Source: a virus (lineage: Duplodnaviria; Caudoviricetes). Taken from it: a stretch of 64,000 nucleotides of DNA. Both the position numbers and the translations under genes were made by a program. The notes under the pieces are model-generated. The model saw nothing but the letters and a program-made list of their open reading frames with translations. It searched no databases and was not told where the DNA came from. Position 1 is the first letter of the stretch; each line of letters begins with the position of its first letter. The stretch is taken from IMG/VR virus record IMGVR_UViG_3300033463_000039, positions 1 through 64,000 of that record; one strand, written 5' to 3'. This document shows positions 858 through 57,000 of this stretch, piece after piece.

Positions 858-1781
858 ATGATTTATATTGCAATTATTTTATTTATTATTAGTTTTATTT
901 TATTTATAATAGGAATTACTAAAAAACAAAAAACTGATGCTATTAATCAACAGATAGATAAAGAAAATGAAAAATTATTAGAAACTAGAAAAATTATTGT
1001 AAAAGATATAAATACTTTAAGAACACAAGAGGAATTTGAAAATCAAAAATTAATTCAAATAAAAAATTTAACTCGAGATATGAATGCGGCAACTCAAGAA
1101 GCTTTTAAACAATATGCAGAAGTATTAGATAAAAATTATGACCAAAAAGAACAAGAATATGATAAATTATTAGAAAATTTAAAACAAAGCTATGATAATG
1201 CGGCTGAGGTATATAGATTAAAACTAGGTGAAATTAAATATGATCTTGATAAAATTTCCGCAACACGCGCTGCCGCATTAGAAGCAAAAAGAAAAGAGCA
1301 AGAGATTAAAGATAAAAAGTCTTTCTATTGTCCCCAAGTTGCAGAAAATGATTTAAAAGATGCTAAAATTTTAAAAGATATAGAATATAAATTAAATAAT
1401 CCTCGTATATTAAGAATGCTTATATGAACAACTTATTATCAAAAACCTATGAATCAAGTTTGTGCAAATGTTTTAGGAGGATCTTCTATTGTTAAAACTG
1501 GAATTTATAAAATTACTAATACTTTAGATGATACCTGTTATATAGGACAAGCAGTTAATCTTGCTCAAAGATGAAAAGATCACGCTAAATATGGATTAGG
1601 TATAGATACTCCTGCTAATAACCGTATGTATAAAGCTATGCAGAAAGATGGCCTTGAAAATTTTTCTTTTGAGGTTTTAGAAGAATGTGCGGCAGCCGCA
1701 TTAAATGAGAAAGAAAAATTTTATATTCATTTATATCAGGCTGATCAGTTTGGATATAACGGGAACAAGGGTATCGGTTAG
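858..1781 (+). CDS. N-terminal TM + coiled-coil + C-terminal GIY-YIG nuclease protein (TGA=Trp)
   Basis: Reading TGA as Trp extends the ORF to TAG at 1779-1781, giving KTGIYKITN...CYIGQAVNLAQRWKDH...ENFSFEVLEE...LNEKEKFYI...GYN. Confidence 0.8.
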
Positions 1782-1783
1782 TG

Positions 1784-54000: not shown

Positions 54001-57000
54001 TACATTTGCACTTCCATGATAAGAATTCCATCTTCCACTATAATATCCCATATCAAGATCAATTCTTAACATTTCTCCTACTTGCATACTAGAATAATCT
54101 ACCGTTCTAACAAGTGGAGAACTTGTATCACTACTTCCAGAATGATTTAATATTACAGTTTCTTCAGTTGTAAAACCAACTGTAATTGAATTTCCATTAA
54201 CTCCTACTATTGTATATTGATATCTATTTTGACCTATTACAATTTCTCCTACTTTTGGAGTTGTATCAGGTCCAATTAATTGACTTCTTAAATATATATT
54301 ATTTGAAGGAGCAACGGTTGCTGCTCATACTGAAGCACCAGCTTCGCCATCAGAGCCTTCTAATTTAAACCATGTATAATCACCTGGGTTAATAGAATCT
54401 TCTTCTGTTGTATCTACATACGTTCCCATAAATTCACTAGGAGTTTTTGTCATTTGACTAAAACTTGAAGGATTTATTACATCTGAGTAATAATAGTGAA
54501 AATATGATGAATCTCCTGCTTCACCTTGAGTTCCTCTTAATCCTAAATTTATATTAAATTGTTGAACTTGCGTTCAAGTAACATTATTACTATCTGTATA
54601 ACTAAATGTCGCAGTAATTAAATTTGTAATATTCTCTATTGCTTTTGTTGAATCTGCAGTTATTACCATATTTTTATTATTTACACTTCAATAATAACTT
54701 AAATTTGTTATTGATGAAGGACTAAATGTACAAGTAACACCTGTAACATCAACATTTTTAAATTTTGGATAACATTGAATTGTATATTGTTTATTTTCAC
54801 TTGGATGATGATTTGTTTCTGAAGGTATTGTTATATTATTTGTAATTGGATTCATTTGTAAAAATGAAGTTGCATTATCCAAGTCTGTAATTTCTTGTTG
54901 CACTGTTCTTTGTGAACCTGATGTCATATATAATTGAGTAGCAACAACTTTACCATTCTGATCAATAGAAAAGTTACCATTTCCTCAATCTATACTTGGC
55001 GCAGATAAGTTGATCTGCATACCAGTTCCCGCAGTAGTATCATAATTACCAGATGTTAAAATTGCTTGATTTGTACTTGGATCAATTACTATTTGTCCGG
55101 ATCCAGTTTTTCCAAATCTAGCTGAACCATCACTAGCATCTAAAGCTATAGTTCTTTCTCCAGAACTATATCCAAATAAACCTGTTTCAATCTCTTGCCC
55201 AGTTTCTTCTATACTTCCTAAAAATACTCCTGTAAATGAATTGTCTTGTTCTTTTCTACCTGCTCCAACCTGAGGAGATAAAATTAAACCTTCATCTTCA
55301 TTTATTTGAATACTATTTCCATTTCAATCATTCATTAAAGCATTACTATATTTATTTAAATAAAGATGAATAGGAATTTGAATTGAACCCATACTTGATA
55401 CAGTACAAGTTATTCCATTATTTACACATAAACCATTAAATTCATCAACAGGCTTGTAATATTTTTGATTATTATTTAAAACTTGTCCATAAGTTTTTCT
55501 TAATTCTATATTAGACTCATCTTGTCAACCATTTATATATGTACTACCATAAATTTCCCATGTGTAAGTAGAAGTTCCGCTTACATCTGCAGTTCCATTT
55601 AAAGTAACTATTTCAAAAGGTTGATTATTATCATACTGAGGATATCTTCCATCAGTTGAATATATTGCATAGCGGAAGCCGCTATTTTTCTTTAGTTTTA
55701 ATGTATAATTACTATTTGAAACTCTTGATACTATAACTGGCATTGTATCATAATAAGTCATACCATCATAAGTTACATTACATCTTACTATGTTTGCGGG
55801 GTCTGTATACTGTGTCCCGTCAAATGTTACAGCACCGGTTGCCGCATTTATATTTAAGTTAGAATCTTCTGTAATAACAACAGAAGATTGATTTTTTGTA
55901 TATCTATTTTTTAATATACTCCAAGAAACATCTACATCTTTGAAATTTCCTTCATCATCTTGCTCAATATTAGAAACTCCTGAAGTAACATCTTCAAAAA
56001 TTTTAATTCCATCATGTCATAATTGAACTTTAAACCATAAGTTTTGACTTACTGGAGTATAATTTAAGCTATAAGTTCCTGCGGCAGTATTATAAGTTAC
56101 CATTGGATAATCATTTAATTCTCCTGTCGCAATATTTGGAATTATTTTACAAATAAAATCTGTACCATTAGTTCCAGATTCACCTTCTTTTATAAAAGAT
56201 AAATTACTTTCTGCTTGATAAGAAACCCCTTCATAATCTATTTTTAATTTAATATTATTATCACTAGCATTTATATCATATTTTGTAGCAATCTCATACC
56301 CTAAAGAATAAATATTTGTATAAACATAATGTCCATCTTCTACTGTTGGAGTCCCATAAGAACTAGGTATAATTATCATAGTATCTGTCATAGGAACTAT
56401 CCATTTAATTGCTGAGCCTGGAATTCCACTTTGAGGAATCTCCGCACCTAAATCATCATATAAAGTAAATGTTAATGGCAATAGAGTAATAGGATTATCT
56501 AATGATTTATTATTTGGCGCAATTCCTTTTTCATTATATTTATAAACTTGAACTCCATTATTTATTACTAAATTATATTCTTGAGCCTTTTCTAATGAAT
56601 TATATAATATAATAGAACCAGTTCCAATATAATTTCCGCTATACCAAACTGAACATTTATAAACTGTATAATTTATAATTTCATTTACTGCTACATTTTC
56701 ATAATTTTTACTTGTAGTATTTAAATCTTTAAAGCTTCCATAACAATCAATAGCAGCTCATGAATAAGTATAATTTGTATCAGTTTGAGAAGTTCCATTT
56801 ATTAAACATGATAAATCTGTATTTCCTACATCAAAATAAAATTGAGTTCCATTACTTGATGCTATTGTTATATTATAACTAGAACTTAAATTATATATAA
56901 TAACTTCTTTTTCTAATATTGTATCATTATTATATACAGCTACACATTTATATTTATTTTCTTTTGCTAAATTATCTTGTTTAGCTACTGAAATTTCATT

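Follow-up and report, generated by a model that had tools for sequence, protein, structure and literature searches.

An orientation-restricted GCGG-N3-CCGC palindrome dispersed through the AT-rich genomes of a phage clade: a candidate protein-binding site

Why does the AT-rich genome of a tailed phage carry one short G+C-rich palindrome again and again, inside genes as well as between them? We wanted to answer this question for IMG/VR virus record IMGVR_UViG_3300033463_000039 (Duplodnaviria; Caudoviricetes). The window, meaning the whole stretch of DNA that was analysed, is the first 64 kb (positions 1 to 64,000) of this 117,993-bp record, labelled G000, and good matches to it were assembled contigs from one bovine-gut sample only. 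GC content is 28.5% for the whole genome and 26-33% along the window. The palindrome in question, GCGGNNNCCGC (GCGG-N3-CCGC, below the N3 palindrome), was detected 15 times in the window, against 0.01 copies expected from dinucleotide shuffles, and 26 times in the whole genome, against 0.02 expected from composition. A sequence-only reading of the same DNA had held that far less than one copy would arise by chance, and the excess is larger than it had reported. The 12 perfect copies that it listed were all recovered, and three were added at 32590, 44394 and 57659. Six of the eight near-copies that it named (6031, 10667, 29564, 31849, 43155 and 48001) have a single mismatch, while those at 22171 and 32542 have more than one.

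One-mismatch copies are themselves in excess. There are 25 of them in the window, so that perfect and one-mismatch copies together amount to 40, while 0.36 were expected. Genome-wide, 26 copies are perfect and 40 carry one mismatch, while the ratio by chance would be approximately 1:48, and therefore all eight specified positions matter. The mismatches are distributed evenly across the four half-site positions.

It had been proposed that the excess be compared with codon-shuffled genes, and that its disappearance under a dicodon-preserving null would speak against selection. Both comparisons were performed. The called genes contain 20 copies of the palindrome. Shuffling of synonymous codons within genes gave 0.30 expected copies (maximum 3 in 300 shuffles), and a genome-wide dicodon Markov model gave 1.21, an expectation that is inflated by the palindrome sites themselves. 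The enrichment stays even under the latter model (approximately 16-fold, Poisson P = 6e-18). We then considered the frames of the 31 in-gene sites of the genome, counting both GCGG-N3-CCGC and its zero-spacer form, GCGGCCGC. The alanine frame GCG GNN NCC GCN was used by 22 of them and the frame xGC GGN NNC CGC (G-x-R) by the other 9; no site (0/31) used the frame that places CGG in frame. The frames and peptides reported earlier for individual copies were correct, as was the remark that otherwise rare codons are used (GCG and GCC make up 344 of 2113 Ala codons, CGC 67 of 1105 Arg codons). Copies between genes were confirmed as well: 12 of 50 sites are intergenic, while non-coding DNA makes up approximately 10% (P = 0.003). 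The signal thus passes synonymous and dicodon nulls, uses two frames as well as intergenic DNA, favours neither the coding nor the template strand and, as described below, arose by changing residues. These results support the earlier view that it acts on the nucleic acid, and not on protein or codon usage. A tie to putative CGG frameshift sites was also considered and rejected, as these have the contexts ACGG and GCGGA and lie hundreds of bases away, and the sole link is that CGG is never in frame.

Behind the palindrome there is a second layer that the sequence-only reading had missed, together with the clade-wide occurrence of the trait. When all 4-base arms were scanned in combination with all spacers, GCGG arms alone stood out, with spacer 3 (26 copies) and spacer 0 (17 copies, GCGGCCGC). 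The half-site CCGC/GCGG is itself the strongest word of the genome in comparison with codon shuffles (386 vs 161, 2.4-fold, z = 20), and its excess is present in all three frames and equal for coding and template strands. The half-site lacks symmetry: NCCGC is enriched whatever the base N, GCCGN is depleted, the flanks favour G before and A after, and TGCGG/CCGCA is the top 5-mer in three genomes. A symmetrised logo of 75 sites adds only C at position 5, G at position 7, T or C before and A or G after the palindrome. Of the zero-spacer form, 12 copies lie in genes, compared with 7.2 expected under the dicodon model; GCGGCCGC is mostly a by-product, because Ala-Ala codons are pushed to GCG and GCC by the CCGC/GCGG enrichment.

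The arrangement of the two half-sites follows a strict rule. The inverted N3 form was found 26, 16, 8 and 25 times in four clade genomes, while the everted form CCGC-N3-GCGG, exemplified by CCGCCAGGCGG as the arm-swapped counterpart of GCGGCAGCCGC, was found 0, 0, 1 and 1 times. In 44 further clade loci (737 kb) there were 76 inverted and 0 everted copies. Pairs at codon-equivalent distances (CCGC-N-GCGG, GCGG-NN-GCGG and CCGC-NN-CCGC) are at or below the dicodon expectation, and the spacer preference is 3 > 4 > 5-6. The head-to-head pair with a 3-base spacer is therefore an entity separate from the 4-mer excess. Since the inverted and everted forms are equally stable in stacking and only the inverted one is used, this argues against a generic hairpin and points to sequence-specific recognition. 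An origin by template switching (quasi-palindrome correction) was rejected, as it would make everted palindromes and other arms equally and neither is enriched.

With regard to position, the GCGG and CCGC orientations are balanced in every 10-kb bin of G000 and of its relatives G003 and G001. Sites are uniform along genes, and their intergenic density is at least equal. Some intergenic copies, among them those at genome positions 90175 and 90704, cap stems that resemble intrinsic terminators with a T run behind them.

The trait is found throughout the clade, down to approximately 55% protein identity. More than 355 AAA_24 matches were counted in IMG/VR, and the 80 that were retrieved are 61-86% identical. 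In relatives at 61-93% identity (GyrA or AAA_24) CCGC/GCGG reaches 1.8-6 times the composition expectation, with a median of 3.5 in 44 AAA_24 loci. A contig of 139,594 bp (G008:C1), binned in a rabbit-gut 'uncultured Bacilli' metagenome-assembled genome (MAG) of 1.4 Mb, is a syntenic phage of this family (approximately 55-68% protein identity), and all 25 palindromes of that MAG sit on it. Its GC content is 36.9%, compared with 29% for the remaining MAG, and it carries 56 copies of CCGCGG, another favoured combination of the same half-site. The distant relative G005 (approximately 30% identity, with gyrase and a diverged winged helix-turn-helix (wHTH) protein) has a weaker CCGC/GCCGC excess and 0 copies with the 3-base spacer, and neither the distant relative G002 nor the capsid-only relative G004 has a CCGC/GCGG excess or the N3 palindrome. 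Three samples of 80 kb from host-like chromosomes gave 0 copies and CCGC/GCGG ratios of 0.7-1.4. Serving in place of the host were two Erysipelotrichaceae MAGs from the rumen, which carry the closest NrdD, and the non-phage part of the Bacilli MAG. To the extent that these chromosomes can represent the host, the pressure therefore belongs to the phage. Judging from the endolysin (Amidase_2, CW_7, LysM) and from the closest NrdD, the host would belong to the Bacilli/Firmicutes.

The perfect copies of the window, with the peptide encoded at each in-gene site and, where available, the residues of relatives, are as follows.

1689..1699, GCGGCAGCCGC, in the GIY-YIG gene 858-1781 (+), Ala-Ala-Ala-Ala; relatives SREQ / PKDE
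5119..5129, GCGGCGCCCGC, in the dnaB-like gene 4488-6029 (+), R-G-A-R
7622..7632, GCGGCAGCCGC, in the RecJ-like gene 7460-9265 (+), AAAA; relatives AAKT / GAKM
15050..15060, GCGGCAGCCGC, in the DnaE gene 13373-15985 (+), AAAA; relatives ALDA / AKEL
18179..18189, GCGGCTGCCGC, in the NrdD gene 16805-18751 (+), AAAA
20861..20871, GCGGCGGCCGC, which includes GCGGCCGC, in the dUTPase gene 20789-21238 (+), AAAA; relatives AEAA / EYAA
22190..22200, GCGGCGCCCGC, in the methyltransferase-glycosyltransferase fusion 21418-23331 (+), G-G-A-R
26550..26560, GCGGAAGCCGC, in gene 26034-28169 (-), G-G-F-R
32590..32600, GCGGCGTCCGC, between genes 31924-32499 and 32708-33169, or inside a 72-aa open reading frame (ORF)
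34547..34557, GCGGCGGCCGC, which includes GCGGCCGC, in the GtrB-like gene 34225-35268 (-), AAAA
44394..44404, GCGGCAACCGC, in gene 43010-44740 (-), A-V-A-A
46374..46384, GCGGCGCCCGC, in the head-protein-like gene 45230-46735 (-), A-G-A-A
53087..53097, GCGGTGCCCGC, in the 2369-aa gene 51007-58116 (-), A-G-T-A
55672..55682, GCGGAAGCCGC, in the same 2369-aa gene (-), S-G-F-R
57659..57669, GCGGCATCCGC, in the same 2369-aa gene (-), A-D-A-A
10136..10143, stand-alone GCGGCCGC (zero-spacer form); others in the window at 11541, 16503, 29567, 31216 and 60940

How such sites arose can be read from homologous genes. At the GIY-YIG, RecJ-like, DnaE and dUTPase sites the alanines stand where relatives have other residues, and in a further segment G000 has AAAA where the relatives have PNW / LNA. 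In NrdD all 19 of 19 bacterial homologues have T[DE]xAxxFG, where the phage has TDAAAAFG. The closest bacterial codons are GAA GCT CTA GCT and those of the phage are GCG GCT GCC GCT, so that five substitutions replaced two residues and completed the palindrome. Therefore, the word is derived in the phage lineage and overrides protein sequence in tolerant segments. The dnaB site at 5119 gives another picture, as the peptide TRGARL is kept with synonymous changes only (G001 has AGA GGT GCA AGA). The NrdD gene itself (16805-18751, +) is non-orthologous to the NrdD of the sister phages (22% identity), is 81% identical to Erysipelotrichaceae genes and has 5 in-frame TGA codons; it is a host-derived gene that was recoded after capture.

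Sites also turn over quickly. A pair of loci at 88-90% identity keeps 5 of 8 sites and a pair at 84% identity 2 of 6. We quantitated conservation in 20 non-overlapping genome pairs at 80-94% identity. The N3 sites were intact in 18 of 52 cases (35%), compared with 17% for composition-matched all-G/C words (P = 0.002), and CCGC/GCGG was kept in 54% of cases, compared with 41% for other all-G/C 4-mers (P = 8e-21).

We favour the reading, to which we assign a probability of roughly 40%, that the N3 palindrome is a dispersed duplex-DNA site for a dimeric, clade-specific and probably phage-encoded protein, and that it acts by the number of sites. On the duplex DNA of the phage, GCGG-N3-CCGC would then be recognised by a sequence-specific protein with two-fold symmetry, which would be particular to this phage clade and most likely encoded by it. 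The existence of this protein reader, its dimer state and the effect of its binding are what we infer here. The half-site would be the asymmetric CCGC with weak flanks, and two of these placed head to head with a 3-bp spacer would make the full site. The sites would act collectively by number or density (approximately one per 3-4 kb) and not by position. Such action by number would let lineages gain sites where proteins tolerate them, chiefly as Ala-x-Ala-Ala, and lose old ones, and the excess of lone CCGC/GCGG, one-mismatch copies and GCGGCCGC may be the halo of this gain and loss. The protein might serve to compact or organise the genome, to mark phage DNA as self, or to load a replication or recombination factor. 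Two mechanisms had been suggested by the sequence-only reading, a dimeric protein site and a tri-loop mini-hairpin. The former is the better, though unproven, fit, because eight positions are sharply specified, the word has two-fold symmetry and one of two palindromic arrangements is used; the latter fares poorly, given 0 everted copies against 76 and no enrichment of other GC-rich arms.

As for which protein might read the word, the wHTH protein of positions 512-790, which the sequence-only reading had named, is a reasonable candidate.

512..790 (+), candidate reader, a 92-aa stand-alone winged helix in the replication module

The predicted model of this protein (pLDDT 85) has a MarR/MepR-like fold with weaker matches to DnaD-N and to the pNOB8 centromere protein, and points to no specific family. 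The protein belongs to virus-only clusters. Its recognition helix, SVNGIVTSAFQ[RK], is near-invariant in the clade and diverged in G005, which has no N3 site. It is the leading candidate reader, on co-occurrence only. Other small proteins conserved in the clade are those of 10658-10945, 3989-4501 and 1909-2850. The recognition helix of Z-alpha domains is marked by Asn and Tyr (N173 and Y177 of ADAR1) and the wing by Pro-Pro-x-Trp. A Z-alpha identity was rejected for the 512-790 protein (E-value 0.14), since Asn aligns while Tyr is replaced by Thr, no PPxW wing is present and the word is not alternating purine-pyrimidine. Ribbon-helix-helix and omega-type repressors (PF01402, PF07764) were absent from the phage genomes searched; the omega repressor binds heptads in converging, not diverging, orientation. 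The GIY-YIG protein 858-1781 (+) is conserved and non-mobile and matches the catalytic domain of I-TevI only. Its nuclease domain is preceded by a transmembrane helix at the N-terminus and by a long coiled coil, an architecture that is unusual for the family.

Several observations weigh against the dimeric-site reading. The sharing of sites among G000, G003 and G001 is low, as only about 1 in 30 alignable sites is common to all three in orthologue alignments (KAAAAR in gyrB), and biased repair or drive would look alike. N3 sites are no better kept than neighbouring phase-matched positions (35% vs 37%). As the words are kept above G/C controls and not above their neighbours, they appear to be protected in comparison with other G/C in an AT-driven genome, while single sites are not individually essential. 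Evenness of spacing is weak and inconsistent: two genomes have coefficients of variation of 0.72 (P = 0.03) and 0.60 (P = 0.01), a third has 0.98, and there are close pairs in G008:C1. The copies at the tips of terminator hairpins mean that the sequence is also used as a stem. Candidate reader proteins are linked to the word by co-occurrence only, and presence or absence singles out none of them, since the wHTH protein, the GIY-YIG protein, p1909, DnaB and GyrA are all found in 44 of 44 clade loci. Finally, a centre-to-centre half-site distance of 7 bp is unusual for winged-helix dimers.

The sharing problem leads directly to a drive of the HIP1 type, in which a methylase and very-short-patch-type (VSP) or other biased repair during replication would turn near-copies into the word without any function. 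Fast turnover with little positional conservation, the large halo of half-sites and one-mismatch copies, and the depletion of GCWGC (104 vs 183) together with the enrichment of GCSGC (163 vs 50) agree with such a process, and it has a precedent, as HIP1 was linked to orphan methylases (PMC4390886). However, no C5-, N4/N6-methylase or Vsr domain (PF00145, PF01555, PF03852) was detected in five phage genomes (G000, G001, G003, G005 and G002), the sampled host-like chromosomes are not enriched, and close relatives differ at sites by a mixture of transitions and transversions, not by the C/T pattern of VSP repair. The words are also kept above composition-matched controls, and for HIP1 conservation above controls was taken as selection, not replenishment (PMC5861425). 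We therefore regard the drive as a doubtful explanation. A Chi-like word seems quite unlikely. It would be (T)GCGG, read on unwound strands by host AddAB/RexAB or by a phage helicase-nuclease, and would tame degradation from DNA ends, with the palindrome serving both directions. The core is indeed an asymmetric 4-5-mer with TGCGG/CCGCA on top, and the Chi sequences AGCGG (B. subtilis) and GAAGCGG (S. aureus) share the ending GCGG; the endolysin and NrdD suggest a Bacilli/Firmicutes host. Chi-rich phages are known (PMC12315714), and a high density without positional conservation agrees with a Chi role, but the sites of the known Chi-rich phages are strongly one-sided (20:3, 32:0) and clustered near one end, while here the orientations are balanced per bin. 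A Chi function would also leave unexplained why the N3 pair exceeds the dicodon expectation 16-fold while everted and direct pairs are not enriched, and the sampled host-like chromosomes, with ratios of 0.7-1.4, have no GCGG excess.

The orientation rule bears most heavily on a structural signal, that is a mini-hairpin with a 4-bp stem and a 3-nt loop in single-stranded DNA or RNA that would serve priming, pausing, termination or RNA stability. The observed spacer preference agrees with it, some intergenic copies cap terminator-like stems, and the phage-encoded gyrase could favour extrusion. Against this, the everted form of the same stacking energy is absent, no other G/C arms are enriched, so that compensatory variation is lacking, and most copies are intragenic on either strand, without T runs; four base pairs are also marginal for extrusion from duplex. 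Signals of this kind, such as the N4 virion-RNAP hairpin promoters and GNA tri-loop hairpins, would keep structure over sequence and sit at defined control points (before early genes, at origins), while the present sites are uniform along the genome and only a few cap terminators. We consider the hairpin highly unlikely. There is even less room for a preferred cleavage or binding site of the phage DNA gyrase, which we judge to be a very remote prospect. Gyrase is present in all CCGC-enriched genomes including G005 and absent from the unenriched G002 and G004, and the single site common to three genomes sits in gyrB; yet the same pattern of presence and absence is seen for many other genes, and mapped gyrase sites have a GxxC core with a 4-bp stagger and an even symmetry axis (PMC12630141), while the axis of the 11-bp palindrome falls on a base. 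Least credible is a by-product of translation, through a codon-pair bias for Ala-Ala or avoidance of other words. The codon pairs GCC-GCA (46 vs 6.3) and GCG-GCC (14 vs 1.4) are in excess and dicodon frequencies do explain GCGGCCGC, but they do not explain the N3 word (20 vs 1.21), and the signal is found in all frames, between genes and equally on both strands, with alanines created to carry it. This explanation is largely refuted.

How does the word compare with known dispersed sequences? No direct precedent for over-represented GC palindromes in phages was found in the literature. The closest counterpart is HIP1 (GCGATCGC), the highly iterated palindrome of cyanobacteria (PMC4390886, PMC5861425). 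Both are short G+C-rich palindromes, hundreds-fold over-represented in and between genes and in several frames, and lineage-specific, and the function of HIP1 is thought to concern DNA organisation. HIP1 is kept better than control words, while the phage word is kept better than composition-matched words and not better than neighbouring phase-matched positions. The phage word also exceeds the at least 15-fold palindrome excess by which HIP1-type sequences are recognised (26 vs 0.02 in the genome; 20 vs 0.30 or 1.21 in genes). It differs from HIP1 in belonging to a phage clade and not to a cellular genome, in being an interrupted 4+3+4 palindrome built from an enriched asymmetric half-site, in the fast turnover of sites between relatives and in that no cognate methylase was found in the phage.

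Uptake signal sequences and DNA uptake sequences (USS/DUS) of Pasteurellaceae and Neisseriaceae resemble the word in that they accumulate in coding DNA, in permissive frames and poorly conserved protein parts, bias peptides and matter by number over position. They differ in being asymmetric 9-12-mers that accumulate through biased DNA uptake; a lytic phage has no uptake step, and the strongest signal here is a palindrome whose arms obey a strict orientation rule. Stoperators of Cluster A mycobacteriophages are likewise dozens of short dispersed copies, many of them intragenic, and they bind protein. They are 13-bp, asymmetric, oriented with transcription and have a known repressor; the present word is symmetric, and neither a reader protein nor a temperate lifestyle is evident. 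With Type II restriction-modification sites the word shares an interrupted-palindrome architecture and sharp specificity. Two related words are such sites, GCGGCCGC (n=17 in G000) being the NotI site and CCGCGG (n=56 in G008:C1) the Eco29kI/SacII site. However, phages normally avoid such sites, as is seen here for GATC, CCGG, CATG and GTAC, while the N3 word is enriched, and no gene for a cognate enzyme was found. The Chi-rich phages LLS and MD8 also carry a short G-rich word, approximately one per 2 kb (PMC12315714), and the core GCGG is as in Bacilli Chi, but nearly all of their Chi sites have one orientation and are clustered at one end, while here both orientations are equally frequent throughout and the chief signal is the palindromic pair.

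The genome that carries the word has further features of note. Long ORFs cover 48% of the window under code 11 and 95% when TGA is read as an amino acid. In-frame TGA codons are absent from the 1909-6029 block, 43010-44740 and 45230-46735, and number 12-21 in large virion genes. The replication module of the window comprises DnaB, primase, RecJ-like and Dda-like proteins, an AAA_24/Sak4-like ATPase, DnaE, NrdD/NrdG, dUTPase and guanylate kinase. The window also has genes for large virion proteins and for the endolysin (Amidase_2, CW_7, LysM), which is of the Gram-positive type. Beyond it lie genes for GyrB, GyrA, an NAD-dependent ligase and a sigma-70 factor. The phage gyrase is complete (GyrB 111828-113522; GyrA 113657-115978, with a C-terminal beta-pinwheel) and is kept throughout the clade. 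Two smaller ORFs were also noted.

12577-13311 (+), a second GIY-YIG (SegE-like) ORF, between the dnaE parts 11364-12368 and 13373-15985; its position fits an intron-borne homing endonuclease
24760-25020 (+), an 86-aa ORF whose only match is to the C-terminal part of RuvC-like Holliday-junction resolvases, possibly the tail end of a gene with an interruption upstream

Some words behave in the opposite way. GATC, GTAC, ACGT, CATG, TCGA and CCGG are depleted compared with codon shuffles or Markov expectation, window-wide and also in G003 and G001. This depletion is ordinary restriction avoidance, and the phage DNA therefore probably carries no modification there. The capsid-only relative G004 (112,265 bp) is an extreme case of such avoidance, with a single GATC compared with approximately 186 expected from codon shuffles. 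A second palindrome family was detected as well (in the window at 45113, 53732 and 58435, also at 56079; in the genome at 66826, 81371 and 106768): CTGCSGCAG occurs 7 times genome-wide, its extended form ACTGCCGCAGT occurs 3 times, and ACTG-N3-CAGT 9 times (0.7 expected).

What may the word mean for this phage family? In its boldest and rather unlikely form, the dimeric-site reading would make it an 11-bp 'self' code, read genome-wide by a phage dimeric protein (of the 512-790 winged-helix family, or a nuclease partner) to organise, protect or prime the DNA. If so, phages would have their own equivalent of HIP1, one whose reader could be identified, and with it a tractable model for iterated palindromes, whose mechanism, in the case of HIP1, has been missing for approximately thirty years. 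The family lends itself to binding assays and comparative analysis because the genome is small (approximately 118 kb), several hundred relatives are sequenced, the orientation rule is strict, no DNA methylase was found and candidate readers are few. The word is also a clear case of DNA-level pressure that overrides protein, as alanine runs were made in conserved enzymes. It serves as a marker of the phage clade, and it brought to light at least one phage contig, of 140 kb, that had been wrongly binned with a bacterial MAG.

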